A stretch of 64,000 nt of DNA from an uncultured SAR86 cluster bacterium (GCA_902635045.1 CACPMT010000004.1:34318-98317); one strand, 5' to 3'; positions 5,735-33,884 are shown, counted from the stretch's first letter. The notes: generated from the sequence alone by a model not told the origin. Program-made: numbers and translations.

Positions 5735-5848
5735 ATGCCAGATCAAGAAAAAGATAAACAATTTAACTTATGGGGGCTTATCATTTTATTGGTCTCAGTC
5801 ACAGTTTTTTTAGCAGTGATTAGTTATGTAATTGATTACATTTATTAA
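5735..5848 (+). CDS. Possible 37-aa single-TM mini-protein
   Basis: An internal Met of track ORF 5642..5848 gives MPDQEKDKQFNLWGLIILLVSVTVFLAVISYVIDYIY. Its stop overlaps the next gene's start as TAATG. The upstream part of the track ORF is antisense to infA. There is no family recognition. Confidence 0.25.
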   Translation: MPDQEKDKQFNLWGLIILLVSVTVFLAVISYVIDYIY

Positions 5849-6315
5849 TGATTTTGACTTTGATACGTCACGCCAAATCGTCTTGGTCAGACCTTTCCTT
5901 AGATGATTTTGACAGACCTCTTAATGAAAGAGGCAACAGAGATGCACCAAAAATGGCACAGTGGTTTTCTAAGAATACTCAAGAGAAACCTATTTTTTTT
6001 TCTAGTTCAGCCAATAGAGCTTTATCAACCGCGAAATTTTTTGAAAAAGAATTGACCCCAATTAAATTTAACGTTGTTGATCATCTGTACCATGCAAATT
6101 TACAAGATTATGAAAGTTTAATCTTAGAAAATAACCATGAGGAGCATATTGTTATTTTTGGACACAACCCGACAATTTCTCAGGTCGCTGAAGAGATGTT
6201 GAAAACTAGATATGTTTATCTAAAAACTTGCTCAATCTGTCAGATAAATTTAGTAGAGCCGGATACTTTATCTGGAGAACTTAATTTTATAAAAAGCCCG
6301 AAAGAGCTAACCTGA
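5848..6315 (+). CDS. Histidine-phosphatase superfamily protein, SixA-like size and layout
   Basis: 155 aa. It has an N-terminal LIRHAKS (RHG/RHA catalytic motif) and a GHNP block near the C-terminal half, as in SixA-type phosphohistidine phosphatases. Confidence 0.65.
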   Translation: MILTLIRHAKSSWSDLSLDDFDRPLNERGNRDAPKMAQWFSKNTQEKPIFFSSSANRALSTAKFFEKELTPIKFNVVDHLYHANLQDYESLILENNHEEHIVIFGHNPTISQVAEEMLKTRYVYLKTCSICQINLVEPDTLSGELNFIKSPKELT

Positions 6316-6401: not shown

Positions 6402-7100
6402 ATGAGTAAAGAACACATTTTATTGGTAGAAGACGAACCTGATTTGCTTCAGACCCTTTCCTTTAATTTTGAAAGTGAAGGTTACAAAGTTTCAAAAGCA
6501 TTGAATGGCAAAGAGGCCATGAAGGCGCTTGAGAAAAATGATTCCATAGCTCTAGTTATTCTTGATTTAATGCTGCCAGATACCAGCGGTTTAGATATTT
6601 GTCGACACATTAGAAATAAAGACGACCTAAAAAATCTCTTGGTTATTATGGTCACTGCCAAAGGAGAAGAAGTAGATAGGGTGGTAGGTTTTGAAGTAGG
6701 GGCAGATGATTACGTTGTAAAGCCTTATAGTGTCAGAGAGTTATTGCTTAGAGTCAATGGCATGCTCAAAAGATCCTCGAAAGAAAAAAACGAAAGCGAT
6801 AAAGAAGTGATTATTTATGAAAAACTAAAAATAGATACCAATAAGCATAAAGTTTACTTATTCGATAAAAAAATATCTTTAACCTCAAAAGAGTTCAAAC
6901 TTCTCAAACATCTCTTATCCAAAGCTGACAAAGTTCAAACTAGAGACAATCTACTAAATAAAGTATGGGGCTATGACCAGGATGTCACAACCAGAACTGT
7001 CGATACACATATTAAAAGATTGAGATCAAAAATTGGAAAATACGGTGACAAAATAGAAACAGTCAGAGGAGAAGGATATCTTTTTAATAAATCAGAATAA
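6402..7100 (+). CDS. phoB: Phosphate-regulon response regulator (OmpR/PhoB family)
   Basis: 232 aa with a receiver domain (LLVEDEP, ILDLMLPD). VTAKGEEVDRVVGFEVGADDYVVKPYSVRELL closely parallels the PhoB block [30 protein letters not shown]. It has a winged-helix C-terminus (TVDTHIKRLR) and abuts a PhoR-like kinase. Confidence 0.75.
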   Translation: MSKEHILLVEDEPDLLQTLSFNFESEGYKVSKALNGKEAMKALEKNDSIALVILDLMLPDTSGLDICRHIRNKDDLKNLLVIMVTAKGEEVDRVVGFEVGADDYVVKPYSVRELLLRVNGMLKRSSKEKNESDKEVIIYEKLKIDTNKHKVYLFDKKISLTSKEFKLLKHLLSKADKVQTRDNLLNKVWGYDQDVTTRTVDTHIKRLRSKIGKYGDKIETVRGEGYLFNKSE

Positions 7101-8453
7101 ATGAAATTTTCGGTAAAATTGAGACTGTTTCTGTTGGTATTAATAGTTGTATCTTCAGTAAGCTTGGTTGCATCTATATTTTATAGAGAGGATATCTTTC
7201 TGAATGAAAACCTAATCGCAGGCATCGGGTTATTATTGCTTATCTCAATTGTCGCAACCTATTTAATTTATCAATATTTTAAAAGACTATTAAATTCAGC
7301 AGCTCAGTTTATCGCCAAAAATAATATGGATGATCCTTCAGTGGCTTCTGAAGAAATTTTTGATAAGCTTCTTAAGGAATCTAAGCAAGTTAAAGATGAG
7401 CTAGTTAATTACTCTCAACAAACTGAACAATTTAGCTCTGTGTTATCAAAAATGGGACAAGGAGTTATTTTAGTTGATAGAAACCATCAAGTTTTGTTTG
7501 CGAATAAAACTATCAATTCAGAATTTTTTCCTGACTTAAATATCGGCGATAAACTTTTTGAAAAAATTAGTTACCCTCAATTTAAAAAATTTATTGAAAA
7601 GGCCTGGATTAAAAAAGACTTGGTTAGAGAGATTTCAGGCCCTATATCTATTAAGACTGTTTATCTGGTAAGTGCTAAAAAAGATGACATGAGAGATGAA
7701 TTGCTGATTGTTTTTAGTGACATATCCAAATCTAAAAACCTTGAAAAAATGAGAGAAGATTTTATTGGTAACGTCTCTCATGAATTGAGAACACCAATTA
7801 GTGTTATCAAAGCTAATGCTGAAACTTTGATTAACAATAAATTAATTAAAGATGATGAAAACGCTAAGTTTTTCACGGAAGCAATATCTTCTCAATCAGA
7901 ACGTATGACAGTCATAGTCAATGATTTGCTTAAAATTTCAAGCATGGAAGCAGGGGAATATCCGATCTCAATTGAGTCTTTAGAACCATTTTCAATTGTC
8001 AATAACTTAATTGAAGGATTTAAACCCAGTTTAGAAGAGAAAAAATTAACTGTGCAAAATAATTTGAACGAACAAACTAGGGTTATGGCTGATGTAGCTG
8101 CTTTGAACATTATCCTGACAAATTTCTTGAGTAATGCTATCAAACATTCGCCTAAAAAAAGCCTCATAAACATAGAAGAATCTTGCTTTACTAGGGGTTT
8201 TATAAGACTATCCGTATCAGATCAAGGTAAAGGCGTACCAAAAAAATACAGAGAAAGAGTTTTTGAAAGATTTTACAGAATAGACAAAGGTCGATCGACA
8301 AAAATAGGCGGTACAGGTTTAGGCCTTTCGATCAGTAAAAATTTAGCTTTGATGATGGGGTATCCCTTAGGAGTTGGATCGAATAAACCTAAAGGTGCAA
8401 CTTTCTTTATCGATGTAAAAATCGATGAAGAAAAATCAGTTCAAGCTGCTTGA
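7101..8453 (+). CDS. phoR: Phosphate-regulon sensor histidine kinase (PhoR-like)
   Basis: 450 aa with two N-terminal TM helices and almost no periplasmic loop, a PhoR trait. It has the H-box MREDFIGNVSHELRTP, an N-box and the G-box GGTGLGLSI. Its start immediately follows the phoB stop. Confidence 0.7.
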   Translation: MKFSVKLRLFLLVLIVVSSVSLVASIFYREDIFLNENLIAGIGLLLLISIVATYLIYQYFKRLLNSAAQFIAKNNMDDPSVASEEIFDKLLKESKQVKDELVNYSQQTEQFSSVLSKMGQGVILVDRNHQVLFANKTINSEFFPDLNIGDKLFEKISYPQFKKFIEKAWIKKDLVREISGPISIKTVYLVSAKKDDMRDELLIVFSDISKSKNLEKMREDFIGNVSHELRTPISVIKANAETLINNKLIKDDENAKFFTEAISSQSERMTVIVNDLLKISSMEAGEYPISIESLEPFSIVNNLIEGFKPSLEEKKLTVQNNLNEQTRVMADVAALNIILTNFLSNAIKHSPKKSLINIEESCFTRGFIRLSVSDQGKGVPKKYRERVFERFYRIDKGRSTKIGGTGLGLSISKNLALMMGYPLGVGSNKPKGATFFIDVKIDEEKSVQAA

Positions 8454-10528: not shown

Positions 10529-10954
10529 TTAATTAAATGCCAAGAATTTATTTCGTTTAATATCGTTACAATGATTAGAAAAAAGATCTGCGAGATCATT
10601 TTGCTTTTCCTCTATTAGATAGTTTACTTGCAAATCACAAGTCAAAGAACTGTCTATTAATCCAATATTTGAATGTTGAAGATAATCGCTATATAGACCA
10701 AAAATCACAACATCATGATACGTTTTCGATAAATCATTTTCTACAAATATTCTACCCATGTCAGCAGATATATAGCAGCCTACTGATTGTTTTGGACAAA
10801 AGTCTTTAACTAGATTTAAATCATATTCAATCTCTATATATTTTGAGTCTAAATTTAAATGGTTTTTAGCACTTTCGAAAATTACTTTATTAGCCATGAC
10901 AGTTGTACTAGCTAAAATGATTGATAAAAAAATAATACTTTTAAAGTATTTCAT
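10529..10954 (-). CDS. Hypothetical secreted protein, 141 aa, 4 Cys
   Basis: The signal peptide is MKYFKSIIFLSIILASTTVMA|NK. There is no recognisable family. It has its own terminator and is divergent from the lipoprotein operon. Confidence 0.6.
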   Translation of the reverse strand: MKYFKSIIFLSIILASTTVMANKVIFESAKNHLNLDSKYIEIEYDLNLVKDFCPKQSVGCYISADMGRIFVENDLSKTYHDVVIFGLYSDYLQHSNIGLIDSSLTCDLQVNYLIEEKQNDLADLFSNHCNDIKRNKFLAFN

Positions 10955-10975: not shown

Positions 10976-11035
10976 TGTAACATTAATGAAACATATTTAA
11001 CATAAATGTAACATTTGTGTAACATTTATGTCAAA
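10976..11035. promoter_or_regulatory. Array A of phased TGTAACA-type heptamers (Pho-box-like)
   Basis: The heptamers are TGTAACA at 10976, TGAAACA at 10987, TGTAACA at 11007, TGTAACA at 11018 and TGTCAAA at 11029. They form two blocks, each with exact 11-bp spacing. The array lies in the divergent gap between the 141-aa gene and the lipoprotein gene. Confidence 0.4.
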
Positions 11036-11144
11036 TTAGATCCTTTTAGTAAAAGTTTTTAACCGCAACTAAATGTCTCATATTTCAAAACAAAAATTTT
11101 TTTTAGAATTTTTTTCGTAATAATTTTCATTATCTTTAAAAAGA

Positions 11145-11188
11145 CGTAACGGTTTCGTAATATTTCTGTAACTATCCCTTTGTAAGAT
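11145..11188 (+). promoter_or_regulatory. Array B: three 11-bp-phased GTAAC repeats plus a candidate -10 (TAAGAT) for the lipoprotein/TBDR operon
   Basis: cGTAAC is at 11146, cGTAAT at 11157 and tGTAAC at 11168. TAAGAT at 11183-11188 lies about 10 bp after the last repeat. This is the geometry of PhoB-dependent promoters, where Pho boxes replace the -35. AAGAGG and the ATG (11219) follow. Confidence 0.4.
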
Positions 11189-11218
11189 TTATTTTTTATT
11201 AGTTAAAGAGGAAATCTT

Positions 11219-14167
11219 ATGAACCCAAAATCAATCAAATACCTATTGTCAGTTCTTTCAATCTTCGTTTTAGTCTCTTGTGGTGGTTCCGGTGATACCA
11301 ATGTTGCTTCGCCTGGTGAACTAGCACAACTAACAGCCCCAAGTGGTACTGATAATTTTGGAGCCACTACTAGCACTTTATTAACAGGAACGTGTCCTTC
11401 TTCTCCGTTTATTTCTGATGCTGCAACTCTTGGTGGAAACACATTATGTGCAATTACGGGACCAATTACTTCAAATCTTACTTTGACAACTGATGTAATG
11501 TATCGTTTATCTGGCTTAGTTGATGTTGGAAAAGATATGGGCGGAAACGGTCAAAAAACTGGAGGAGTTTCTGCAACATTAACGATTCCAGCTGGTGTAA
11601 CGCTTGCTCAAAAATCACCTGATGATTATCTTGTTGTTCAAAGAGGTTCAAAAATTATTGCTAATGGAACAAGATCTAAACCTATCAGATTTACTGCAGC
11701 TTCTGCTGTTGATGGATCTTTAACTAATCCGGATAGTGCAACTGGTCTTTGGGGAGGAATAGTAATTTTAGGAAAAGCACCAATTAACAAGTGTGCTGCT
11801 GCTGATTTAAACACTGTTGATTGTGAAAGAGTGGTTGAGGGTTCGACTACTGCTATCATGGGTGGAAATACTCCAACTGATAACTCTGGTGTCTTAAAGT
11901 TTGTAAGAGTTGAATATGCAGGTAAAGAAATATTCCCAGGCAACGAATTAAATGGTATTACCTTTGGTGGTGTTGGTTCTGGTACCGAAGTAGACTACGT
12001 TCAAGTTCATAATAACCAAGATGATTGCGTAGAGTTTTTTGGTGGAACTGTAAATGTCAAACATTTAGTTTGCACGAATGCGGGTGATGATAATCTTGAT
12101 ATCGATTGGGGTTATCAAGGAAAAATGCAATTTGTTGTTGTTAAACAAAATGTTGGTGCTGGTGATCACATTGTCGAATCAGACAACACAAACTCTAATG
12201 CAGCAGTAGGTTACCTAACAGAGCCTAGATCACAACCAATGGTTGCTAATTTTACCTTTATTGGAGGAGGAGCTGATGAACCACTTAAGTATAAAGAAGG
12301 TGTATCTGGAATTTATATCAATGGTATTGTTGTAAACCAAGCATCAGCAAATCTCATAGAGGGTACTTTTGCAGAAACTACGCAAGATGGTGCATTAACA
12401 GATAAAATTGCCCATCATTCCATATTTTTTGATTCAGCTAAGACAGGACAACCTACAGCGTTAAATCCGACAGTAGTAGCGTTTGATAGCTCAGTAACTG
12501 CTGCAGATTTTGCAACATCACTTACATCAAGATCAACTAATTTAACCATTGGAACCAATACTTTGGTGGACACATATTTCTTGGGTAATGCAGAGTCTGC
12601 TGTTCCTAGCGCTTTCTCCATATCACAAAAGAACGCTATGTGTGCAGTTGGAACTCATGCAGCTGGTGCTGTTACAGAACTATGCCCTGCATATGATGAT
12701 GGTAAGTACACAGTTAATACTTGGTTTTCAGCGACTGATTATATTGGTGCATTTTCACCTGGGTCTGATGCAGAAAATAACTGGGCTGCAGGTTGGACAA
12801 TTGGTTTATTTACCGATCCTGCATGTCCAGCTGGAACTCTTGAATCAGAAATTCTTTTAGGTAGAAAAGTTTGTGACTTAAGAGGAGTTATTACAAATGA
12901 TATAACTCTAGTTGCAGGAAACTATTATAAGCTTGATGGTAAAGTTCAAATCGGTGTTGATGTAGGAGCAGATGGCTCTGCTGCAAGCGGTGATGCAGCT
13001 ACACTTACTATCAATCCTGGCGTTACAGTTTTTGGTGAATCAGGTAATGACTATTTAGTTGTCATGAGAGGTTCCGATATTAATGCTGTTGGAACAAGAT
13101 CAGCTCCAATTGTGATGACCGGAAGACAAGATATTCTTGGTCAAGCAGATGTTAACTCAACAAGAGGACTTTGGGGTGGATTAGTCATTCTTGGTCAATC
13201 ACCTATCAATAAGTGTACATACACAAATGGAGTAAAAGCTAACCCTTGTGAAAAAGAGGTTGAGGGATCAGCTGGAGATGTAATGGGTGGTGAAATCCCT
13301 ACTGACAGCAGTGGAGCACTCAAATATTTAAGAGTTCAGTATGCAGGATATGAGGTATTTCCAGGTAATGAGCTAAATGGAATTACTTTTGGTGGTGTTG
13401 GAAGCGGTACCTCGGTTGAATACATCCAAGTGCATAACAATGCTGACGATTGCGTTGAGTTCTTTGGTGGAACTGTCGATGTGAAACGTTTGATATGTAC
13501 TGGAGCAGATGATGATAACTTAGACATTGATTGGGGTTATCAAGGAAGACTTCAATACGTAATAGTTCAACAGGCCAACGATACAGGCGATCATATTGTA
13601 GAATCAGACAACACAAACTCTAATGCAGCAGTAGGCTACCTAACAGAGCCTAGATCAAACCCCATTGTTTCTAATTTCACATTTGTAAGCAGAGGTCATG
13701 ACGATGTATTTAAGTTAAAAGAGGGTGTATCAGGTCAATATTATAACGGAGTTGCTGCAGTCCTTAACGCAGCTTCTGGCTTATCAACAGGTTGCATTGA
13801 AACAACTCTTGCAGAAACTATTCAAGATGGAGCTAGCACTCCTAAGTTCTCAATGAATTCTGTTGCAATGGATTGTCCTAGTTATATATCTACAGACGGT
13901 GCTGCAACCGTTGCACAGGTAAATGCAATTGTAAAAGCAGGAGCAAATAATCTCTATGGAGCTAATTCAGGCGGAGGTAATTATCAGAATACTCTTTCAG
14001 GAGTTGTTAACGGTACTGCAGAGGCCGCAGCTACTCCGACAGCTATTCCTGCAACATACAATGCCGATGGATTTTTTGACACTCCTACATATATAGGTGC
14101 AGTTAGCGGAGCTACTGATAGTTGGTACAAAGTATGGACATTACCTGGATCAATAAAACTTAACTAA
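11219..14167 (+). CDS. Large lipoprotein of unknown function with two tandem ~475-aa modules
   Basis: 982 aa, with SD AAGAGG and a lipobox LVS|CGGSG (Cys21). There are two homologous halves with invariant blocks NELNGITFGGVGSGT, VHNN-DDCVEFFGGTV, DDNLDIDWGYQG and GDHIVESDNTNSNAAVGYLTEPRS. The G/N/D/T-rich periodic sequence suggests a beta-helix fold (inference). Confidence 0.85.
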   Translation: MNPKSIKYLLSVLSIFVLVSCGGSGDTNVASPGELAQLTAPSGTDNFGATTSTLLTGTCPSSPFISDAATLGGNTLCAITGPITSNLTLTTDVMYRLSGLVDVGKDMGGNGQKTGGVSATLTIPAGVTLAQKSPDDYLVVQRGSKIIANGTRSKPIRFTAASAVDGSLTNPDSATGLWGGIVILGKAPINKCAAADLNTVDCERVVEGSTTAIMGGNTPTDNSGVLKFVRVEYAGKEIFPGNELNGITFGGVGSGTEVDYVQVHNNQDDCVEFFGGTVNVKHLVCTNAGDDNLDIDWGYQGKMQFVVVKQNVGAGDHIVESDNTNSNAAVGYLTEPRSQPMVANFTFIGGGADEPLKYKEGVSGIYINGIVVNQASANLIEGTFAETTQDGALTDKIAHHSIFFDSAKTGQPTALNPTVVAFDSSVTAADFATSLTSRSTNLTIGTNTLVDTYFLGNAESAVPSAFSISQKNAMCAVGTHAAGAVTELCPAYDDGKYTVNTWFSATDYIGAFSPGSDAENNWAAGWTIGLFTDPACPAGTLESEILLGRKVCDLRGVITNDITLVAGNYYKLDGKVQIGVDVGADGSAASGDAATLTINPGVTVFGESGNDYLVVMRGSDINAVGTRSAPIVMTGRQDILGQADVNSTRGLWGGLVILGQSPINKCTYTNGVKANPCEKEVEGSAGDVMGGEIPTDSSGALKYLRVQYAGYEVFPGNELNGITFGGVGSGTSVEYIQVHNNADDCVEFFGGTVDVKRLICTGADDDNLDIDWGYQGRLQYVIVQQANDTGDHIVESDNTNSNAAVGYLTEPRSNPIVSNFTFVSRGHDDVFKLKEGVSGQYYNGVAAVLNAASGLSTGCIETTLAETIQDGASTPKFSMNSVAMDCPSYISTDGAATVAQVNAIVKAGANNLYGANSGGGNYQNTLSGVVNGTAEAAATPTAIPATYNADGFFDTPTYIGAVSGATDSWYKVWTLPGSIKLN
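11393..12823 (+). repeat. Intragenic tandem duplication, module copy 1
   Basis: This copy covers residues ~59-535. Cys77 (nt 11447) aligns with Cys552 (nt 12872), an offset of 1425 nt or 475 codons. Confidence 0.8.
12824..14164 (+). repeat. Intragenic tandem duplication, module copy 2
   Basis: This copy covers residues ~536-982. It has the same order of conserved blocks as copy 1. A 57-nt patch (13601-13657) matches 12176-12232 with one mismatch. Confidence 0.8.
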
Positions 14168-14196
14168 TACCTTTTAAAACCTATTTTGGAGTCAAA

Positions 14197-16824
14197 ATGA
14201 AATCTACAAAAAAAATAAATAAAATCATGGGTTTTTTAAAGTTTGCTTTACCCTTCATAATAGTTTTTCCATTATTTATTAATGCTCAGGAAGCTGATGA
14301 AGAATTGGTTGTAAGTGGATCTTTTATACCAGATGCAAAAAGGAATACATCTGAGATTTCTGCAGTATTAGATTCATCAAGTATCGAAAGAGCTGGCGAT
14401 GACAATATTGCTATCGCCCTTACAAGACTTGCGGGTCTCAGTCTAGTGCGAGGCAAATACGTATATGTAAGAGGTTTAGGTGATAGATATTCATCTGCTT
14501 CACTAAACGGCCTTAATCTTCCAAGCCCAGAACCACTCAAAAGAGTTGTACCACTTGATCTTTTTCCAACAAGCATCATTGAATCGTCTGTAGTACAAAA
14601 AACTTATTCAGCTGACATGCCTGGTGAGTTTGGCGGAGGCATGGTTGAGATAAAAACAAAGGCTGTGCCTTTAGATAGAATCTTTGAATTTTCAGCTTCA
14701 ACAAGCTTCAACACCGCTACTTCGTTAAAAGATGATGGGTTAATGTACGATGGCGGAGAGGATAGTTTAGGGTACGATAACGGGATCAGATCAATTCCAA
14801 GCGGTGTTCAGAACGCTATCAATAACAACCTTAAACTTGATAGATCTAACTTTAATTCCACACAATTGGCTAACTTTGGTCGAGAGTTTGAAAATTCAGC
14901 GCTATGGGTCATACAATCAGGAGATGTTCCTCTAGATGAATCTTATAGTTTAACTTATGGAGATAGTCTTGACGGTTTAGGAATTGATCAAATCATTAAT
15001 ATTCCAAGTGCAACAATGGGCTTTATGGTTACAGGAGGTTACAAAAATTCTTGGGATACTCAAGAAGGAATCAGACAAACCGGTGATTTACAAAATGTGG
15101 GTGGAACTGTCAATGTAATAGTTCAAAATGACAAAACTTTTAGAAGCACAACGAATGACATTACAGCATATGCAATGGCTGTTCTTGGGGTTGAAACGGA
15201 TTTATCTGAATTAAAATACACCGGATTATATATTCATAAAGGATCAAAAGAAGCTCGTATCTTGCAAGGGTATGACTCAAGTGATTCGGCTAATGTTCGA
15301 GAAGATTTTACAGAATTTTACGAAAGAGAATTAACAAATCATCAGTTAAATTTTAATAAGACTTTTGAAAATGGCTGGAATTTAAATGTAGGCTTGAGCG
15401 ATGGAGAGGCAGAGAGAGATTCTCCATATGAAAGAGTTGTTTTCTATGAAGATGGAAACAATGACGGAGTTTACTTATACGATGTTAATACAGGTAGGAA
15501 CCAAACCCAGTTTAGTATGGTCGAAGATCAAACTACAAATGTTGTTATAGATTTAGAGATACCCTTAGAGATACCCTTTGGTTCTTCAACATTTTTAAGA
15601 GCTGGAGTTGAAAGTCTTGAAAATGACAGATCAGCTGAAGTTAGAAGTTATAGATTTCTGGCTGCTGGCGGTCCCATACCTCAAGATGGTCTAGATAATA
15701 GAATAGATTATATTTTTGCTGATCAAAATTTTGATCCTAATAGATTGTTGGTAATTGAGAATACGGCAAGTTCATCGCCAGCTGGGTACTTAGGATTATT
15801 GGAAGTTGATTCAACGTATATCAGCGTTGAATCTAAAATTAGAGACAATTTTGAAATTACTGCTGGAATTAGGCATGAAGACGGCCTTCAGCAAGTTAAT
15901 ACATTTGATTTATTTACAGGCGTTGACTCTACTATTGATAGATCAATAGAAGAAGATTATCTGCTACCTTCAATGACATTAACTTATCTTCCTGAATTTG
16001 ATGAAAACCTTCAATTTAGATTGGGTCTTTCTCAGACAATTGCTAGGCCAACCTTCAGAGAGCTTTCTCCAACACTATTTATAGATGTTGATACTGACAG
16101 AGTAATAGCTGGTTCACTATATTTGCAAGATAGTGAGATTGACAATATTGATTTAAGAGCTGAATACTATTTTGGCTTAAATCAATTTTTAACAGCTGGA
16201 ATTTTTTATAAGGATATTCTTAATCCTATCGAAGAAACTGTTAATGAGTCAGGTGATTTAATTATTACTTCTTACCAAAACGTTCCTTCGGCTGAAATCA
16301 CTGGTTTTGAAATTGAATATGAGCAAATATTTGAGGCGATTATGGACTCTAATAACGACTTAATCGTTAAGTTCAATTATACGGATACTGACTCTGAAGT
16401 AATTGTGAATCCTGGAGATACTTATATAAATAATCTTGGTACTTCAGTAAATGCTCAAACTCTTCTAGCAAACGGAAGAGATACCAGATTACAGGGTCAA
16501 TCAGATACAATTGCAAACTTTCAAATTGGTTTAGATAATTTACAAGATCAATCTGAAGCCACCCTAATCTTTAACTATGTTAGTGATAGAGTAAGGGCTA
16601 GAGGTGTTGATGTTTTACCAGATATTATTGAAGAACCTCCATTATTGGTTGATTTTACATATTCAAGAGTTTTAGCTTACCCTAATTACGATTTGAAATT
16701 GTCGCTTGAATTAAGAAATTTACTTGACGAGGAGTACTATGCTTCTATGAGAAATGTTGCAATATATGATCAATATGATCTTGGTCAATCAGCTTCATTA
16801 GGATTTAAATTCTCCTTTAAATAA
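14197..16824 (+). CDS. TonB-dependent outer-membrane receptor
   Basis: 875 aa with a signal peptide. Plug blocks are EELVVSGSF, VRGLGDRYSSASLNG and VVQKTYSADMPGEFGGGMVEIKTK, followed by a long beta-barrel region. SD GGAG lies 29 nt after the lipoprotein stop. The C-terminus is FKFSFK, so the last residue is not aromatic. Confidence 0.9.
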   Translation: MKSTKKINKIMGFLKFALPFIIVFPLFINAQEADEELVVSGSFIPDAKRNTSEISAVLDSSSIERAGDDNIAIALTRLAGLSLVRGKYVYVRGLGDRYSSASLNGLNLPSPEPLKRVVPLDLFPTSIIESSVVQKTYSADMPGEFGGGMVEIKTKAVPLDRIFEFSASTSFNTATSLKDDGLMYDGGEDSLGYDNGIRSIPSGVQNAINNNLKLDRSNFNSTQLANFGREFENSALWVIQSGDVPLDESYSLTYGDSLDGLGIDQIINIPSATMGFMVTGGYKNSWDTQEGIRQTGDLQNVGGTVNVIVQNDKTFRSTTNDITAYAMAVLGVETDLSELKYTGLYIHKGSKEARILQGYDSSDSANVREDFTEFYERELTNHQLNFNKTFENGWNLNVGLSDGEAERDSPYERVVFYEDGNNDGVYLYDVNTGRNQTQFSMVEDQTTNVVIDLEIPLEIPFGSSTFLRAGVESLENDRSAEVRSYRFLAAGGPIPQDGLDNRIDYIFADQNFDPNRLLVIENTASSSPAGYLGLLEVDSTYISVESKIRDNFEITAGIRHEDGLQQVNTFDLFTGVDSTIDRSIEEDYLLPSMTLTYLPEFDENLQFRLGLSQTIARPTFRELSPTLFIDVDTDRVIAGSLYLQDSEIDNIDLRAEYYFGLNQFLTAGIFYKDILNPIEETVNESGDLIITSYQNVPSAEITGFEIEYEQIFEAIMDSNNDLIVKFNYTDTDSEVIVNPGDTYINNLGTSVNAQTLLANGRDTRLQGQSDTIANFQIGLDNLQDQSEATLIFNYVSDRVRARGVDVLPDIIEEPPLLVDFTYSRVLAYPNYDLKLSLELRNLLDEEYYASMRNVAIYDQYDLGQSASLGFKFSFK

Positions 16825-16890
16825 GAGGTTTATTTCTATGAATCGAAGTTAAGTTTTTGTTTTTTCTCTGTTTATAATAAAAACACTTCA

Positions 16891-16918
16891 AAAAGGCCAT
16901 ATTTAAATATGGCCTTTT
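16891..16918 (+). terminator. Intrinsic terminator after the lipoprotein-TBDR operon
   Basis: A perfect palindrome, AAAAGGCCATAT-TTAA-ATATGGCCTTTT, ends in a T-run. It starts 67 nt after the TBDR stop. Confidence 0.75.
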
Positions 16919-17101
16919 CTAATATGAGTATTAAATTAATTTAATTACTGTTAAAGATAAAGAGAGCTACTTAACGAAATGAATTTAAATAAAACACAAG
17001 AAGTAGTTTTCTTAATATTGATGTAAAAATATAAATTAAAAACAGGGAAATTGTATGAGCTTTTATATTAATTTAAAGAAAAAAGTTTGATTTAAGAATT
17101 A

Positions 17102-17746
17102 ATGAAAATAAAAAAATACATTGCTGAATTTTTAGGAACCTTTTTTTTAGTGGCTACAGTCATTGGTTCCGGGATCATGGGTGATAATTTATCTTCTGGT
17201 AATGTGGCAGTGGCTTTATTAGGTAATACGATTGCAACCGGAGCAATTCTTTATGTCATCATTAAATCTTTTGAAGATTTATCAGGAGCTCACTTTAATC
17301 CAATTGTCTCAATAGTCTTTTATTTTTTAAAAGAGATCAACTTAAAAGATTTACTCTTCTATTTAATTATTCAATTCATTGCAGGATTTTTCGCAGTAAT
17401 ATTTATCCATTTCATATTTGAACTTAGTTTGCTTCAAATTTCATCCAAACCCAGGATGGGAATCAGTATGGTTTTAAGTGAAATAATTGCATCACTGGGA
17501 TTAATTTTAACTATCTTAATGGTTAGAAAAAATAATAAGTCTAATGTAGCTATTTCAGTGGCTTTATTTATTACAGCGGGTTACTGGTTTACATCGTCTA
17601 CCTCATTCGCAAATCCAGCAGTAACTCTAGCTAGGACATTTACGGATACTTTTACTGGAATTTCACCAGAGTCGATTATTTATTTCTTTTCAGGCCAATT
17701 AATTGGTCTGTTCATTGCTTTGTATATTTATAAATTTTTAAGATGA
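17102..17746 (+). CDS. MIP-family channel (aquaporin-like, arsenite-channel context)
   Basis: 214 aa with six predicted TM segments. The first signature is HFNPIVS (NPI rather than NPA) and the second is FANPAVTLAR. It overlaps arsC as ATGA. Confidence 0.85.
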   Translation: MKIKKYIAEFLGTFFLVATVIGSGIMGDNLSSGNVAVALLGNTIATGAILYVIIKSFEDLSGAHFNPIVSIVFYFLKEINLKDLLFYLIIQFIAGFFAVIFIHFIFELSLLQISSKPRMGISMVLSEIIASLGLILTILMVRKNNKSNVAISVALFITAGYWFTSSTSFANPAVTLARTFTDTFTGISPESIIYFFSGQLIGLFIALYIYKFLR

Positions 17747-18162
17747 GAGAATCGAAGAAAATATTATTTCTCTGCACTGGAAATTCTTGTAGATCGCAAA
17801 TGGCTGAAGGTTTTGCAAAAAAATTTACTACTTTTCAGGCTTATTCAGCTGGCACTAGAAAATCTAATTTAAATTCATATGCAATCAAAGTAATGTCAGA
17901 AGTCAAAATTGATATATCAGATCAATTCTCTAAAACCATAAACGAATTGGAAGACAAAGATTTTGATTATGTTTTTACTTTATGTTCAGATGTTGAAGAA
18001 AACTGTCCAGTCTTATTCAAAGGGAAGACCATACACAAAGGTTTTGAAGATCCTCCTATGCTCTCAGAAAATATAAATGATGATGAAAAAATATTAAATA
18101 TTTACAGAAGGGTAAGGGATGAAATTCTTGATTTCATTCTAAATATCAATCATGACATTTAA
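17743..18162 (+). CDS. arsC: Arsenate reductase, LMW-PTPase (thioredoxin-coupled) type
   Basis: 139 aa. The N-terminal LCTGNSCRSQMAEG P-loop (CX5R) and downstream Cys residues (LCSD...ENCP) are typical of the ArsC/LMW-PTP class. Confidence 0.88.
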   Translation: MRESKKILFLCTGNSCRSQMAEGFAKKFTTFQAYSAGTRKSNLNSYAIKVMSEVKIDISDQFSKTINELEDKDFDYVFTLCSDVEENCPVLFKGKTIHKGFEDPPMLSENINDDEKILNIYRRVRDEILDFILNINHDI

Positions 18163-18292: not shown

Positions 18293-18322
18293 TGTAACAT
18301 TTCTGTAACATTTTTTGTATAC
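18293..18322 (+). promoter_or_regulatory. Array C of phased TGTAACA heptamers upstream of TBDR-phytase
   Basis: TGTAACA is at 18293 and again at 18304 (11 bp apart), and TGTATAC at 18316. The array ends 30 nt before the TBDR ATG (18352). Confidence 0.4.
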
Positions 18323-18351
18323 ATTACCTCTAGGTTTATTGAGGGACTCCT

Positions 18352-20904
18352 ATGAAAAAAATATATTTACTCCTTTTAATTTTTACAAACCCTTTTGTAT
18401 TTTCACAAGAAAACTCAGAAATTACTGAGGAATTGTATGTAGTTGGAACAAAAGCTAGCATCATCTCTGCTATAGAAAAGCAAAGGCAATCCGATCAGAT
18501 TATATCTGTTATAGATTCAGATGCCTTAGGTGAATTTCCAGATACTACTGCAGCAGAGGCTTTAAGAAGAATCTCAGGTATTTCAGTTGAAAACGATCAA
18601 GGTGAGGGCCGTTACGTTACTGTTAGAGGTCTCTCGGGAGACTTAAACAATATTTCTGTTAACGGCGCAACTATTCCAGCACCAGAAGGTGGAAGAAAAG
18701 TGATGCTTGACGGTCTGCCAACAGAGCTTCTAGATTCTATTGAAGTATACAAATCTTTAACTCCTGATCAAGATCTTGATTCTATTGGTGGAAGAGTTGA
18801 GTTTAATACGAAAAGCGCTCTAGACTTGGATGGCACGTATTTCAAACTAAAAGCAAATACCCTATACAACGATCAAACATATAATGCTGATAATCCTAAA
18901 ATCTCCCTTACTTACGGAGATCTGATTAGTGAAAATGTGGGACATATAATTGGTCTTACTTATTCTAAAAAACAAGTAGTTACTTACAACAACGAAACCG
19001 GATTTCCTGCCTGGGCTGCCACTGGTGGAAACTATGCAATAGATGATGATTTTGAAAGCAGATATTATGATTTAACCAGAGAAAGATTAGGAATTACTTA
19101 CGACATTGATTATAGGATCAATGATGAATCATCTATGTATGCAAATATTTTATGGAATGAATACGTGGATGATGAGCTCAGATATAAAGATGAGTACGGG
19201 AAGTTAAAAAATAGCAATGTTACTGCAACGGGAAGCACTATTACAGAAATAAGAAGAGATTCTGAAACAAGAGTTAGGGAGGAAGTTAGAACAATTAGAA
19301 CATTCATTCTAGGTGGTAAAACAATAATCAACGGTTGGGATGCAGACTTTGCATATTCGAATTCTTTTGCTGAAGAAGATGATACAGACAATGTTGATGC
19401 AAAGTTTAGAAGTAGTACATTTAAGGCAGCTGCTTGTGGAGGACCTTGCGGATCTTTTGACTATTCAGATCCTCAAAAACCACGTTTGACTCTAGTTCCT
19501 GCAATTATTACTGGAGCTGGGAATATTTATGATCCAGCAAGCATGGGAGTAGATGAGATTGAAGAGGAAGATTCTATAATTGAGGACACAATATCATCAG
19601 TTCAGGCTGATTTTACAAAAGAAGGTTTTACGGTTTCTGATATTCCAACGACTTTAAAATTTGGCTTCAAATATAGTACTCGAGAAAAAGAAAAAACTGT
19701 TTCAGGTTTCAAATCGGATCCTGGTACTTCTCAATCAGCTTACAATCCAATCACTACACCAGTTAACTGGCCTTGGCCAACTGTTTTTGGTCCCATGGCA
19801 GATCCTGCAACAATCTTCGCTCTTCAGGGTACATTTGGTTCATTAACAAATAACTATGCAAAACCTAACTATAATAAAGATTTTGTTTCTGAAGAAGATA
19901 TCACAGCACTTTATTTTATGGGCACAATGGAATTTGAAAACGCAGTTGTGATTGCAGGTCTAAGGGCAGAGGACACCTCATTTGATACACTTGGATACAA
20001 TAAAGAAGATGGCTCTATTATTAGAGCATCTAAAAATTACACATTCGTATCACCAAGTGTAAACGTAAAATACTTCGTCAATGACGATACAATAGTTCGT
20101 GGTGCAATTTATCGATCTTTATCTAGACCTGGATTCGGTGAAACTGCTCCTGTAGCAGACTTTAAATCGGATGGAACTGCAGCGGATGGAAGTACAATTT
20201 ATAAGGGAGAAATGGGTAATCCTGACTTAGAACCATATGAATCTACAAATCTAGATCTTACCTTTGAAAGATATTATGAAAATGGCGCAGTATCAATAGG
20301 TTATTTTAGTAAAGATGTTAAAAACGCTATTTATCCTCAGGTTACAGCAGGTGTTGTTGGAGGGATTAACTTTAGTGAATTAGAAACATACATTAATAGC
20401 GAAAAGTCAACAGTTGATGGAATTGAATTTAATTTTTTCAGAGAATTTGTGAATCTTCCTGAACCATTTGATGGTTTATTCATCTCATTAAATTTAACTG
20501 AAGTTGACGCTGAAAGTGATATTCCTAGCGCTAAAGGTGTGTTTACCGTTCCATTTAGAAAACTCGCTGATAGTACAAGAAATTTATCAATTGGTTACGA
20601 CAAAGGAAAAGTTGACATGAGACTCTCATTAGCTCAAAGAAGTGATTACTTAGATTATCTTGCTGATGATGATATAGAAACTACTGTAGATAATCTAGAT
20701 TATGACAATATCAGATTTACTGACGATCATTCGCAAATAGACTTTACAGCCAAGTACTATTTAAATGACAATTTAACTTTTAAATTAGACTTAATTAATA
20801 TAAATGACGAACCAGAATTCTATTATTGGGGCAATACTTCAAGACTTTCTCAATATGATGAATATGGTAGAAGTGCGACAATTGGCTTCACTTATAAGTA
20901 CTAA
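18352..20904 (+). CDS. TonB-dependent outer-membrane receptor
   Basis: 850 aa with a signal peptide. Plug blocks are EELYVVGTKAS, VRGLSGDLNNISVNG and GGRVEFNTK. The barrel ends in the aromatic terminus GFTYKY. Confidence 0.9.
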   Translation: MKKIYLLLLIFTNPFVFSQENSEITEELYVVGTKASIISAIEKQRQSDQIISVIDSDALGEFPDTTAAEALRRISGISVENDQGEGRYVTVRGLSGDLNNISVNGATIPAPEGGRKVMLDGLPTELLDSIEVYKSLTPDQDLDSIGGRVEFNTKSALDLDGTYFKLKANTLYNDQTYNADNPKISLTYGDLISENVGHIIGLTYSKKQVVTYNNETGFPAWAATGGNYAIDDDFESRYYDLTRERLGITYDIDYRINDESSMYANILWNEYVDDELRYKDEYGKLKNSNVTATGSTITEIRRDSETRVREEVRTIRTFILGGKTIINGWDADFAYSNSFAEEDDTDNVDAKFRSSTFKAAACGGPCGSFDYSDPQKPRLTLVPAIITGAGNIYDPASMGVDEIEEEDSIIEDTISSVQADFTKEGFTVSDIPTTLKFGFKYSTREKEKTVSGFKSDPGTSQSAYNPITTPVNWPWPTVFGPMADPATIFALQGTFGSLTNNYAKPNYNKDFVSEEDITALYFMGTMEFENAVVIAGLRAEDTSFDTLGYNKEDGSIIRASKNYTFVSPSVNVKYFVNDDTIVRGAIYRSLSRPGFGETAPVADFKSDGTAADGSTIYKGEMGNPDLEPYESTNLDLTFERYYENGAVSIGYFSKDVKNAIYPQVTAGVVGGINFSELETYINSEKSTVDGIEFNFFREFVNLPEPFDGLFISLNLTEVDAESDIPSAKGVFTVPFRKLADSTRNLSIGYDKGKVDMRLSLAQRSDYLDYLADDDIETTVDNLDYDNIRFTDDHSQIDFTAKYYLNDNLTFKLDLININDEPEFYYWGNTSRLSQYDEYGRSATIGFTYKY

Positions 20905-22178: not shown

Positions 22179-22219
22179 GTGTCAATTATGTGACATGTAA
22201 GTGTCAATAAAGTTACAAA
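22179..22219 (+). promoter_or_regulatory. Array D: four 11-bp-phased GTGTCA-type repeats, distal to pit
   Basis: GTGTCAAT is at 22179, GTGACATG at 22190, GTGTCAAT at 22201 and GTTACAAA at 22212, with exact 11-bp spacing. TGTCA-N6-TGACA can also be read as an inverted repeat. Confidence 0.4.
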
Positions 22220-22453
22220 TAATATGAATACTAAAACCGTTCTTAAAGATCAAAGATTAATACCTGCAAAGTCTCAAGTGCAAGAGATGGTTATATTTGG
22301 TTTTATTTCTTTATGGATAGTTTTAGTGGCAGTTCTTTATTTTTCATAAATATCTCTGAAAAAAAAACCTAAGTCTTTTTATTTATCCATAAATTGCAAG
22401 GATTTGAATCATTCACTATTTCATATAAATTTTAATTTAATATCTAAAATTAA

Positions 22454-23779: not shown

Positions 23780-24529
23780 TTAAAGAATAAATAATAACCA
23801 GATTCCAGACAAAGTAATGTGCGGACCAAAAGCAATAGTTTTTTCTGAAACATTTCTTTTTTTAAAAAAATACCAAATTATTCCTGATAAAGAAGAGACA
23901 AATAAAATAAAGGGTAAATTGTAGATACCAAAAAATAGAGATAGATTGGATATCAATATTATATCCCCCCAACCAAAAGAATCTTTCTTCAATATATAGT
24001 CTGCTAAAAATTTGATAGCAGATAACACGGCAAGGCATATCAAGAAAGAGACAAACCCTAGGCCTAAAGAAGTGAAATAAAAATTGGTAAGAATTCCAGT
24101 AAAAAAAACGATTAAATTAAGCGAGAAGGGAATTTTGAAAAAACTTTCGTCCAATCGAGCGATTAAGATTAAGGTAAAAATAAAAAGACAATCTAAAAGA
24201 AAGATATAATTTATCGAACCTGCTTTGATCAAAATTAAGGCAAATAAAATTCCAAGCAAAATCTCGAAAAAAGGGTAACTGATTGAAATACTTTGTTTGC
24301 AAGATTTACATTTACCCATTTGAATAAAAAAACTTAAAACCGGTATGAGCGAAAATACTGATAAAGGTGCTTTGCAATTTGGACAAAACGACCTGGGAAA
24401 AGAAAGTCCCATATCTGGGAACTCCTTCAAAGCATTACGATAATTAAGGATAATAGGCATGCGATATGACAAGCTATTGAGAAAGCTTCCAAATATAAGT
24501 CCTAGCAAGAAAGCATATAAAATTTCCAT
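23780..24529 (-). CDS. gspO: Prepilin peptidase (A24 family)
   Basis: 249 aa. It has the N-terminal Cys pairs CPNCKAPL...CKSCKQSI, a polytopic core and GWGDIIL in place of GxGDxKL. It is divergent from gspC and could equally serve type IV pilins (pilD). Confidence 0.8.
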   Translation of the reverse strand: MEILYAFLLGLIFGSFLNSLSYRMPIILNYRNALKEFPDMGLSFPRSFCPNCKAPLSVFSLIPVLSFFIQMGKCKSCKQSISISYPFFEILLGILFALILIKAGSINYIFLLDCLFIFTLILIARLDESFFKIPFSLNLIVFFTGILTNFYFTSLGLGFVSFLICLAVLSAIKFLADYILKKDSFGWGDIILISNLSLFFGIYNLPFILFVSSLSGIIWYFFKKRNVSEKTIAFGPHITLSGIWLLFIL

Positions 24530-24547: not shown

Positions 24548-24580
24548 TTGTCACTTAATTGTCATTCAAAATCGTATATT
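24548..24580 (+). promoter_or_regulatory. Pho-box-like direct repeat plus -10 upstream of gspC
   Basis: TTGTCAC (24548) and TTGTCAT (24559) are 11 bp apart with the AT spacer TTAA. Compare the E. coli consensus CTGTCATAWAWCTGTCAY. TATATT at 24575-24580 lies 9 nt further on, and the gspC ATG is at 24627. Confidence 0.4.
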
Positions 24581-24626: not shown

Positions 24627-25457
24627 ATGAATATAAATTTTTTTAATATTTACAATGAAATCGCTGATTTCATTTCTAAAAAGGCCAAAACAATTGCTAT
24701 TGCTATCGTTGTTTTAATATTTTCTTTTGAGACTTCAAATGTAATTTTAGAAATAATCTTTGCTGACAAACCCGTTCTAAATCAGTCCACCGCCGCAAAG
24801 ATCCAAATCAGAAAGATAGATCAAAATCCTTTCTTGTCAAATTATGATTCTAAAGTAAATTCCAATGCTCTTTTAAACGCTATCAAAGCTCCAGAAACAT
24901 CATTATCTTTGAAGTTATTTGGCGTGACTTCTTCTGAGGATAAAAATTTTGCAATCATTGGCCTCAATAAATCAGATCAAAAAGAGTATCAGACAGGAGA
25001 TCGCATCTTAGATAATGTTTTTTTAGAGTCGATACATAAAGATTATGTAACGATCAATAGATCTGGGGTTGCAGAGAGTCTCTCATTTAATAAACCGAAC
25101 CTAATTTCAGGAATAGAAACTGAAATTTTAAAAAATCCTGCAAATAAAAATGACAATATAATTTCCGCGGAGTGGCTATCAAATCAAAATATTCTTGACG
25201 CGATTTCTTTTGTTCCAATTTTTTCAAACGGCACTTTGTCTGGACTGGAAGTAAATCCTGGAGAAAATAAAGACTTTTTTGTTAACTTAGACCTTATGCC
25301 AGGAGATGTTCTTGTTTCAATAAATGGTGCTTTAGTCTCTGATCTAAATGAAAATTACCTTTCAAACCTGGAGACTTTTTTCAGCGAACCTAGGGATCTT
25401 AATCTTTCGATCTTGAGAGATAACAATCCAATTTCGATTGGTATAAAAGTAAATTAA
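24627..25457 (+). CDS. gspC: Type II secretion system protein C
   Basis: 276 aa with an N-terminal TM and an HR-domain pattern (LKLFGVTSS..AIIG....YQTGDRI...FLESIHKDYVTINRSGVAESLSF). It has a C-terminal PDZ-like PGDVLVSINGALVSD and is first in the gsp operon. Confidence 0.78.
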   Translation: MNINFFNIYNEIADFISKKAKTIAIAIVVLIFSFETSNVILEIIFADKPVLNQSTAAKIQIRKIDQNPFLSNYDSKVNSNALLNAIKAPETSLSLKLFGVTSSEDKNFAIIGLNKSDQKEYQTGDRILDNVFLESIHKDYVTINRSGVAESLSFNKPNLISGIETEILKNPANKNDNIISAEWLSNQNILDAISFVPIFSNGTLSGLEVNPGENKDFFVNLDLMPGDVLVSINGALVSDLNENYLSNLETFFSEPRDLNLSILRDNNPISIGIKVN

Positions 25458-25464
25458 ATAAAAT

Positions 25465-27357: not shown

Positions 27358-27364
27358 AAATTAG

Positions 27365-28732: not shown

Positions 28733-28734
28733 TT

Positions 28735-29943: not shown

Positions 29944-30395
29944 AAAAAAAGATAAGAAAAAATTTTAATGTTAAATCATTGGAAAATGGATTCAGCCTTA
30001 TTGAAATATTAGTTGTTCTTATGATTATTGGAATGCTAACTGCTGTTGTGGCTATAAATGTCTTGCCTAGTCAAGATCGAGCAAGGGTAGATAAAGCAAA
30101 GGCCGATATCAGGATTATGGAACAAGCTTTAGAGCTTTATAGGTTAGATATGTTCTCTTACCCTACAAAACAAGAAGGTTTGAATGCGTTGATAGAAAAA
30201 CCCTCTAACAATAGATTTTCAGATAGATATCGCCAAGGCGGCTACATAAGGAGGTTAGAGCTTGACCCATGGGGCAATGACTATCAATACGAAAGGCCAG
30301 GAAAAAACAATAGTCCATTTGAGATTATTTCCTTTGGCGCAGATGGCCAAAAAGGGGGAGAAGGTCTTGAGAGTGACATATCTAATTTGGATTGA
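29940..30395 (+). CDS. gspG: Type II secretion major pseudopilin GspG
   Basis: 151 aa. It has the prepilin leader ...ENG|FSLIEILVVL, then AKADIRIMEQALELYRLD and DPWGNDYQYERPG...FEIISFGADGQ, which are canonical GspG blocks. Confidence 0.92.
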   Translation: MKKKIRKNFNVKSLENGFSLIEILVVLMIIGMLTAVVAINVLPSQDRARVDKAKADIRIMEQALELYRLDMFSYPTKQEGLNALIEKPSNNRFSDRYRQGGYIRRLELDPWGNDYQYERPGKNNSPFEIISFGADGQKGGEGLESDISNLD

Positions 30396-30400
30396 TTTGA

Positions 30401-33880: not shown

Positions 33881-33884
33881 AAAT

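Follow-up and report, generated by a model that had tools for sequence, protein, structure and literature searches.

The closest described relative of the system analysed here is ElpS (cc0170) of Caulobacter crescentus, a lipoprotein of ~50 kDa with a lipobox at residues 17-20 that is produced only under phosphate starvation (PMC2996285). ElpS is palmitoylated, located in the outer membrane, exposed at the cell surface and open to attack by proteinase K (PMC2996285, Le Blastier et al. 2010), and it is cleaved at residue 38 and released in a manner that depends on the type II secretion system (T2SS; PMC2996285). In C. crescentus, elpS is followed by cc0171, which encodes a TonB-dependent receptor (TBDR), and then by gspC-N, with gspO in the opposite orientation (PMC2996285); the Caulobacter PhoB regulon takes in the T2SS and several TBDRs (PMC11208175). 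Here we analysed a lipoprotein gene and the adjoining TBDR gene in a 64,000-nucleotide stretch of DNA from an uncultured SAR86 cluster bacterium (GCA_902635045.1 CACPMT010000004.1:34318-98317; the window hereafter). Judged by sequence, the two genes are the SAR86 orthologue of the elpS-cc0171 system, with the lipoprotein doubled in tandem.

Related pairs have been described in other bacteria. In Flavobacterium johnsoniae, Fjoh_0545, a TonB-dependent transporter (TBDT), and Fjoh_0546, a lipoprotein, are encoded in a 'PhoBR operon' (Lidbury et al., PMC8115612). Both increase by log2 8-10 upon phosphate (Pi) depletion only, Fjoh_0546 is a major component of the exoproteome, and the F. johnsoniae homologue is tightly repressed under iron limitation (PMC8115612). 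Price described BT4055/BT4056 as a TBDT and a putative lipoprotein 'lid' that are adjacent in 621 genera, and reported that BT4056 is homologous to ElpS and belongs to the pectin-lyase superfamily (bioRxiv 10.1101/2023.03.17.533168). In Xanthomonas, the xcs T2SS cluster carries an ElpS homologue, XAC0692 (PMC7777525).

Sequence relationship to ElpS and CC0171

The whole window lipoprotein had no match in local copies of Pfam-A and NCBIfam or among PDB sequences, the Pfam-A copy searched being older than the family model PF28492. That model (PF28492.1) is precomputed for a protein, P0001, that is identical to the window lipoprotein, so that the profile search suggested in an earlier note on this DNA, empty locally, does yield a family. 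In a large protein database we found at least 1,559 homologues at E <= 0.001, and the best 120 of the 1,559 all carry PF28492, a family that our literature search found mentioned in no paper. A profile-free scan with module 2, the C-terminal of the two modules described below, recovered proteins of one to six modules that fall into 5,528 clusters at 50% identity. The nearest homologues of the window lipoprotein come from SAR86 cluster bacteria, and the window has a G+C content of ~32%.

The C. crescentus entry was absent both from a homologue search with a Caulobacter sp. query and from a cluster look-up of ten matches, and the peptides encoded by the elpS primers occurred in none of 402 retrieved proteins. 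We sought elpS in metagenome contigs with the published forward cloning primer, which matched three contigs, one of which (L081) also holds the exact 3' elpS primer. The product recovered in this way has 515 aa, starts with MKLYRNLMLVSCAAMALAGC, ends with TACTSLPTN and has the lipobox LAG|C at residues 17-20; downstream lie the genes for an 890-aa TBDR and then GspD. Because the primers and the published lipobox position fit, we take the recovered gene to be elpS. The published reverse transcription PCR primers ELPSF, CC0171F and CC0171R fit the recovered contigs with 1-2 mismatches only, and ELPSR was not found in them even with two mismatches, indicating that the contigs belong to close relatives of strain CB15N and not to CB15N itself. 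At the protein level, L081 and L083 were 98% identical.

Both modules of the window lipoprotein aligned with ElpS by BLASTP: module 1 with 38% identity over 277 aa (E=3e-51) and module 2 with 37% identity over 446 aa (E=4e-69). The window TBDR aligned end to end with the elpS-adjacent TBDR (32% identity over 868 aa, E=4e-114). These alignments argue that the window pair is an elpS-cc0171 orthologue with a tandem-duplicated lipoprotein. Two statements of the earlier note thus give way. The lipoprotein, which it could place in no characterised family, is a homologue of ElpS (CC0170/CCNA_00169) that carries PF28492, with a receptor of the CC0171 type, and the pairing, which it called uncharacterised, had already been noted in 621 genera (bioRxiv 10.1101/2023.03.17.533168).

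Two predicted beta-helix modules with conserved acidic residues

The features of the pair and of its surroundings are collected in Table 1. In translation, the lipoprotein opens with MNPKSIKYLLSVLSIFVLVSC|GGSGD, where the lipobox LVS|C ends in Cys21 with Gly at +2. The two halves of the protein are 53% identical over 390 aa (BLASTP, E=1e-134). The block NELNGITFGGVGSGT recurs at residues 242-256 and 717-731, and both copies also contain VHNN.DDCVEFFGGTV, DDNLDIDWGYQG, GDHIVESDNTNSNAAVGYLTEPRS and YIGA..W..W. The lipobox, the two-copy architecture and each of the sequence blocks quoted in the earlier note, all found in both halves, were therefore read correctly.

An AlphaFold2 model of the full protein (mean pLDDT 82) comprises a disordered tether at residues 22-58 followed by two right-handed parallel beta-helices, in keeping with the beta-helix scaffold that had been suggested from the periodic sequence; module 2 modelled alone reached a pLDDT of 82.4 and a pTM of 0.88. 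Foldseek searches against the PDB returned only generic beta-helix proteins, among them the two-domain enzymes of the PL6 and GH55 families, tailspikes and pectin enzymes. No E-value was better than 1e-4 with the full model or than 0.014 with one module, and TM scores did not exceed 0.35, nor identity 12%, so that neither function nor catalytic residues can be transferred from these matches. Across Pfam, NCBIfam, PDB and Foldseek we found no close PDB structural relative and no profile-level membership of a catalytic family. No confident match linked the protein to a characterised non-phosphorus family in which catalytic residues are conserved, the outcome that would have spoken against a role in phosphorus acquisition.

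To describe conservation we compared 100 modules from 80 loci, and polar residues present in at least 96% of modules were numbered as in the window protein (module 1/module 2). These are Arg142/617, Glu207/682, Asp221/696, Ser223/698, His264/739, Asp268-Asp269/743-744, Glu272/747, Asp290-Asp291/765-766, Asp294/769, Gln304/779, Glu320/795, Asn344/819 and Asn368/843. Both window modules retain all of the family-invariant polar residues, suggesting that both are probably functional. From Asp268 onwards, conserved residues recur every 22-28 residues, which corresponds to one helix turn in the strand pattern of the model, and the conserved polar residues are predicted to stack along one face as a groove. 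The acidic and His blocks singled out in the earlier note thus correspond to conserved acidic residues on successive helix turns of both modules.

Each SAR86 module also has a pair of cysteines, C270/C285 and C745/C760 (window 12026-12073 and 13451-13498). The first replaces a glycine that is present in 94% of family modules, changing DDGVE to DDCVE in the SAR86 proteins, and the second follows 15 residues further on, in VCT or ICT, in both modules. The pair is probably a lineage-specific disulfide that joins adjacent helix turns.

The TonB-dependent receptor and a single transcription unit

The window TBDR matches the Pfam domains Plug (E=4e-7) and OMP_b-brl_3 (E=2e-18) and, partially, the NCBIfam model TIGR01782 (TonB-Xanth-Caul), at 186 bits against a cut-off of 310 bits. 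Just after its signal peptide stands EELVVSG, which resembles a TonB box. A search of PDB sequences with the window TBDR as query gave no match. The gene starts 29 nt past the lipoprotein stop codon and has its own Shine-Dalgarno sequence, GGAG, 7 nt before its ATG. In one contig of run X5, one of the metatranscriptome runs used below, this gene carries an in-frame deletion of 12 nt at window position 15553 that the contigs of the other three runs lack; this variant is a polymorphism of the population and probably falls within a loop.

Transcription was followed in seawater, where the metatranscriptome index showed marine runs with up to 87% of the region's words. Four independent marine metatranscriptome runs, drawn from three studies, were used, and their assembled contigs were placed on a 20-kb part of the window. 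Depth was 20-85 over positions 11003-17005 in all four, whereas phoBR, ppx and ppk2 had a depth of ~0-3 in most bins (highest 12) and the MIP-arsC genes 0-5, placing the pair at 10-50 times the depth of neighbouring genes. The second TBDR gene and the phytase gene behind it (TBDR2-phytase) reached 20-400 at the 5' end and were lower or patchy beyond. The pair is thus strongly expressed in situ along with another gene set preceded by Pho-box-like repeats.

Contigs from X1 (13717-14219) and X6 (13653-14263) bridge the lipoprotein stop and the TBDR start, and past the hairpin behind the TBDR gene, at ~17005, depth fell about fivefold, from ~20-28 to 1-5 in the next bin. Together, the bridging contigs and the drop after the hairpin indicate that the pair is one transcription unit. 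A receptor gene 29 nt downstream with its own ribosome-binding site, and one terminator closing the pair, had been read from the sequence; the former agrees with the open reading frame, the GGAG and the domain matches, and the latter with the hairpin and the declining depth.

Conserved linkage to receptors, secretion and phosphate genes

To place the pair in a wider context, we examined 80 loci from a scan of species-representative genomes, which span SAR86, Hyphomonadaceae, Caulobacterales, Sphingomonadales, Xanthomonadales, Alteromonadales, Kordiimonas and others within the Alpha- and Gammaproteobacteria. In 76 of the 80, the lipoprotein gene had an orthologue of the window TBDR as its same-strand neighbour, directly downstream in 74 and upstream in two (L077, L078); the remaining four loci are cut by contig ends. 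When flanking open reading frames were clustered, GspC, GspD and GspE were the most frequent further neighbours after the TBDR. T2SS genes flank the pair in half of the loci (40 of 80), phoB/phoR in 11 and pstB in 7, and two other SAR86 genomes (L001, L002) have phoB/phoR-like genes directly upstream of the pair. Coupling of the lipoprotein to a TBDR, which the earlier note had proposed from one locus, is thus borne out by adjacency and by co-transcription, and the survey of homologues that it called for also recovers phoB/phoR and pstB. No dedicated inner-membrane transporter was among the conserved neighbours in the flanking-ORF clusters of the 80 loci, in keeping with a cargo from which the cell takes phosphate alone.

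Among loci in which modules could be counted, 35 encoded two, 24 one and two encoded three, the three-module proteins occurring in Halieaceae-like genomes (L031, L035). When the modules were arranged in a neighbour-joining tree, most two-module lineages, SAR86 included, had their own modules 1 and 2 grouped with each other, suggesting repeated recent duplication or concerted evolution. On this grouping we rejected an ancient duplication with specialised modules.

A phosphorus island with Pho-box-like repeats

Upstream of the pair, the window encodes, in order, a SixA-like phosphatase, PhoB-like and PhoR-like proteins, Ppx and PPK2 on the minus strand, and a secreted protein of 141 aa, also on the minus strand. 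Downstream follow a MIP channel, ArsC, the second TBDR with a beta-propeller phytase, a PHO4-family phosphate transporter and gspO on the minus strand. All of the neighbours that had been named from the sequence (phoBR-like genes, Ppx, PPK2 and the TBDR-phytase pair) were located.

We searched the window for the motif TGTMAY-N5-TGTMAY with at most one mismatch, using 100 shuffles of the whole window as background. Thirteen matches were found against 4.0 +/- 2.1 expected, and one of the 100 shuffles reached 13. Five intergenic promoter regions of the phosphorus/T2SS island account for ten of the 13. The three half-sites ahead of the lipoprotein gene read GTAAC/GTAAT/GTAAC, and with at least two 7-nt direct repeats in 11-nt phase they have the form of a Pho-regulon promoter and mark a putative PhoB site. 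Further matches stand 43 nt ahead of the TBDR2-phytase operon (TGTAACATTTCTGTAAC, 18293-18309) and, as a canonical exact site, between gspO and gspC (TGTCACTTAATTGTCAT, 24549-24565); the latter suggests that the SAR86 T2SS may be under Pho control, as in Caulobacter. The phased Pho-box-like repeats that the earlier note had seen before the operon are thus real, in both groups listed in Table 1, and exceed the background window-wide. Of 12 gammaproteobacterial homologue loci, 11 carry the motif, with one mismatch at most and in the same orientation, 77-94 nt ahead of the lipoprotein start, and elsewhere each locus of 15-17 kb has 0-5 matches.

Table 1. Features of the lipoprotein-receptor pair and its surroundings in the window.
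Feature	Position	Strand	Basis or remark
PhoB-like response regulator	6402-7100	+	best NCBIfam match PhoB TIGR02154, 239 bits
PhoR-like histidine kinase	7101-8453	+	best NCBIfam matches PnpS, PhoR
Second group of phased TGTAAC repeats (4-5) between the divergent genes, closer to the 141-aa gene (-)	10976-11034	+	motif search
Three phased (11-nt) Pho-box-like half-sites, GTAACggtttcGTAATatttctGTAAC	11146-11172	+	47-73 nt before lipoprotein ATG
Lipoprotein open reading frame, 982 aa	11219-14167	+	translation
Lipoprotein signal peptide with LVS|C lipobox	11219-11281	+	direct reading of translation
Flexible tether, residues 22-58, pLDDT 24-42	11282-11392	+	AlphaFold model
ElpS-type beta-helix module 1 (predicted), ~residues 59-530	11393-12808	+	BLASTP to ElpS, AlphaFold, invariant residues
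ElpS-type beta-helix module 2 (predicted), residues 531-982, plus stop codon	12809-14167	+	BLASTP to ElpS, single-module model, invariant residues
Intergenic spacer, 29 nt, GGAG ribosome-binding site, transcribed through	14168-14196	+	sequence, metatranscriptome contigs
CC0171-type TonB-dependent transporter, 875 aa: signal peptide, EELVVSG, plug, barrel	14197-16824	+	Pfam, BLASTP
Palindromic hairpin, 13-bp stem, terminator of the two-gene unit	16890-16919	.	sequence, transcript depth
gspO	23780-24529	-	Pfam
gspC to gspN, full type II secretion cluster	24627-34610	+	Pfam

Several further features of the island were observed. The SixA-like phosphohistidine phosphatase gene (5848-6315) stands directly upstream of that of the PhoB-like regulator. 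The 141-aa protein (10529-10954, minus strand) has a clear signal peptide, MKYFKSIIFLSIILASTTVMA, and no family match; its depth was 22-34 in runs X1 and X2, and it may be another Pho-regulated secreted protein. The MIP-family channel and thioredoxin-type arsenate reductase ArsC genes (17102-18162) lie inside the island with low transcript depth, a placement consistent with arsenate entry via phosphate uptake systems. The 5' part of the TBDR2 gene (18340-19006) had a depth of 402 in run X1, and the many substitutions in its contigs point to a second strain or paralogue that is closely related and very highly expressed. The longest phytase reading frame overlaps the end of the TBDR2 gene by 101 nt (20804-20904) and has a signal-peptide-like stretch from about residue 40, so that the true start is probably an internal ATG. 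The phytase and PHO4-family genes are 537 nt apart, and this gap contains three more phased repeats in minus orientation (22179-22217), adjoined by a 41-aa reading frame (22224-22349). Directly after gspN is a gene for an alpha/beta hydrolase (34610-35494), which may be T2SS cargo.

Proposed function and alternatives

We consider it probable, with ample room for doubt, that the pair is a PhoB-controlled outer-membrane module for phosphorus scavenging that captures a ligand and hands it off to its receptor. When phosphate is scarce, PhoB would bind the phased repeats and drive a single mRNA for both genes. The lipoprotein would be lipidated at Cys21 and, by analogy with ElpS, displayed on the surface via a flexible tether of ~35 residues. 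Each module would offer a groove of invariant residues (Asp268/269, Glu272, Asp290/291/294, Glu320, Asn344, Asn368 and their module 2 equivalents). This acidic groove, probably with a divalent cation, would capture an anionic phosphorus ligand too large or too scarce for porins, and may also trim it. The lipoprotein would then pass the ligand to the dedicated TonB-dependent transporter; phosphate would be freed in the periplasm and enter by Pit or Pst. The nearby T2SS, preceded by a Pho box, probably governs release of the lipoprotein from the surface, as in Caulobacter. Doubling of the module would give two capture sites per anchor, and such doubling appears to have arisen repeatedly in the family.

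The earlier note had likewise proposed a phosphorus-starvation system, in which the lipoprotein either binds or hydrolyses an organic or condensed phosphate. The starvation part of that proposal gained from the conserved Pho boxes and the adjacency of phoBR, and from the induction of ElpS and Fjoh_0546 by Pi depletion (PMC2996285, PMC8115612). Within the hydrolysis part, a simple phosphomonoesterase was dropped as the leading idea, the one biochemical datum being that ElpS was negative in assays with p-nitrophenyl phosphate (pNPP; PMC2996285).

Several observations count against a role in phosphorus capture as we propose it. Neither refolded ElpS nor immunoprecipitated secreted ElpS had phosphatase activity on pNPP, deletion of elpS left the phosphatase activity of the supernatant unchanged, and cc0171 was reported to be constitutive, unlike elpS (PMC2996285). 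AlphaFold-Multimer gave few confident contacts for BT4055/BT4056 (bioRxiv 10.1101/2023.03.17.533168). In the window, the PhoB-like regulator scores 239 bits, below the 296-bit cut-off of TIGR02154, and the SAR86 repeat TGTAAC differs from the enterobacterial half-site TGTCAT. The metal loading of the groove is conjecture. Metatranscriptome depth gives an in-situ level of expression, not a response to phosphate. Literature searches (SAR86 phytase/TonB; CC0171, CCNA_00170, BT4056, XAC0692) returned no paper that identifies a substrate.

On a bolder version of the proposal, which we regard as doubtful, ElpS-type modules would be an unrecognised class of cation-dependent binding proteins or hydrolases for condensed or polymeric phosphate (polyphosphate, pyrophosphate or a phosphorylated polymer), and the pair would be a major TonB-powered phosphorus route in oligotrophic-ocean bacteria such as SAR86. 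If so, carrying the module twice, as has come about repeatedly, would strengthen the hold on a polyvalent ligand through avidity.

Among the alternatives, the one that survives best, unlikely as we think it is, casts the lipoprotein as a surface enzyme. Each module would be a metal-dependent hydrolase or lyase that cuts a phosphorus-rich polymer (polyphosphate, nucleic acid, teichoic-acid-like or phosphorylated glycans, or phospholipid head groups), and the TBDR would import the fragments. The fold is that of polysaccharide lyases and hydrolases, all Foldseek matches being such beta-helices, and the strictly invariant Asp/Glu cluster with a 97%-conserved His over five helix turns resembles an active site. 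In addition, ppx and ppk2 adjoin the pair in the window, and overexpression of ElpS increased phosphatase activity in the supernatant (PMC2996285). The inactivity of refolded and immunoprecipitated ElpS on pNPP (PMC2996285) speaks against an enzyme, however, as does the Tyr that ElpS carries in place of the conserved His. Neither Pfam, NCBIfam nor PDB sequence searches linked the protein to a catalytic family, and the best structural matches, at E>0.01 and TM <=0.35, do not allow catalytic residues to be transferred.

The acidic and His residues could instead serve metal capture, with the groove binding Ca2+, Zn2+ or Fe3+ and TBDR import supplying Pho-regulated metallo-phosphatases (PhoX, PhoA and PhoD types) and the Ca-dependent beta-propeller phytase. 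Metal-acquiring pairs of a TBDR and a surface lipoprotein are well known, residues such as the invariant ones here typically coordinate hard metals, and a gene of the Ca-dependent phytase family lies nearby. ElpS, moreover, acted as an activator of an unidentified phosphatase and not as a phosphatase (PMC2996285). We nevertheless rate metal capture as quite improbable: the conserved neighbours include no Fur/Zur-type context or metal-uptake genes, the recurring ones being T2SS, phoBR and pstB, and in F. johnsoniae only Pi depletion induces the homologue, which iron limitation represses (PMC8115612). Calcium is abundant in seawater, so TonB-driven uptake of it should be unneeded, which weakens this explanation further.

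It is equally hard to credit that the lipoprotein is a passive lid or plug-gate partner with no ligand site, all specificity residing in the transporter. A lid function was proposed for this among several 'lid' families of non-SusC transporters (bioRxiv 10.1101/2023.03.17.533168), and the pairing is near-obligate, at 76 of 80 loci. Against this, ElpS is cleaved and released (PMC2996285), which better suits a soluble capture protein. A passive lid would have no need of ~15 invariant polar residues kept in both modules and across ~5,500 sequence clusters, and the module has been duplicated repeatedly.

SAR86 bacteria are rich in TBDRs for carbon compounds. A carbohydrate-active enzyme (CAZyme) or adhesin unrelated to phosphorus, lying in the island by coincidence, is nonetheless the least credible option: the pectin-lyase-like fold and one source's label of a homologue as 'trimeric autotransporter adhesin' favour it, but phoBR, pstB and Pho-box linkage recurs across distant lineages, two homologues are experimentally Pi-starvation-specific (PMC2996285, PMC8115612), Pfam and NCBIfam gave no CAZyme or adhesin profile match, and no sugar-utilisation genes are among the conserved neighbours.

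For a pair that probably captures a phosphorus ligand and hands it to its receptor, the nature of that ligand matters in several ways. The family is very large and is induced by Pi starvation in both species tested. SAR86 is one of the most abundant bacterial groups of the surface ocean, and in four seawater metatranscriptomes few genes of the region are transcribed as strongly as this pair. Knowing the ligand would give models of dissolved-phosphorus turnover in the sea a defined route and would explain why so many bacteria link the T2SS to phosphate stress. For annotation, 'hypothetical proteins' would become an ElpS-family lipoprotein and an ElpS-associated TonB-dependent transporter. Relative to the known pair, what is new here is the doubled module, the phosphorus genes between the pair and the T2SS, and the sequence peculiarities of SAR86, including the Cys pair. 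Module doubling is common in the family and without description in the literature on ElpS pairs that we found.

Comparison with known systems

The most distant comparisons are with enzymes and with unrelated capture systems. PL6 AlyGC (5gkq) and GH55 Lam55A (3eqn) are right-handed parallel beta-helices with two tandem domains, as predicted for the window protein, although similarity to pectate and alginate lyases and GH28/GH55 enzymes is slight (Foldseek E 1e-4 to 1e-2, TM 0.15-0.35, 8-12% identity). SusD/SusC, BtuG/BtuB2 and HmuY/HmuR share the logic of a surface lipoprotein that feeds a TonB-dependent barrel encoded next to it, and their ligands are established. The kinship is one of neither sequence nor fold: SusD is all-alpha and TPR-like and BtuG a beta-propeller, whereas the window protein is modelled as a beta-helix.

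Nearer are the Bacteroidota pairs. Fjoh_0545/0546 and BT4055/BT4056 resemble the window pair in a TBDR with a plug and a PF14905 barrel and in a pectin-lyase-fold lipoprotein that lacks an older Pfam family. In contrast to the window, the order is reversed (TBDR, then lipoprotein) and the TBDR has an extra N-terminal PF13715 domain; the kinship of Fjoh_0546 and BT4056 to the window protein follows from Price's statement about ElpS. The XAC0692 locus, like the window, has an ElpS homologue and a TBDR upstream of a second T2SS, an order also seen in Xanthomonas arboricola (locus L040: lipoprotein, TBDR, gspC/D/E), but XAC0692 has a single module and a plant-associated host.

ElpS/CC0171 (CCNA_00169/CCNA_00170) itself differs from the window pair in several respects. 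ElpS consists of one module in 515 aa, whereas the window protein has two in 982 aa. ElpS has Tyr at the position of window His264/739, where 97% of modules, including both in the window, have His; it reads VELQS where the window has NELNG; and it lacks the SAR86-specific Cys pair (DDC...VC). In the window, unlike Caulobacter, 7.8 kb with the MIP, arsC, TBDR2-phytase and PHO4-family transporter genes separates the TBDR from the T2SS. Surface exposure, release and induction by phosphorus starvation have been demonstrated for ElpS, while the window pair is known from its sequence and transcripts. The counterpart of the window tether in ElpS is a Pro/Thr-rich linker, with the release cut at position 38 (PMC2996285). 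What the two systems share is extensive: homologous lipoproteins, each with a lipobox and a flexible linker, a homologous TBDR encoded directly downstream, gspC-N further downstream with gspO opposed, and Pho-linked regulation, which is predicted for the window.

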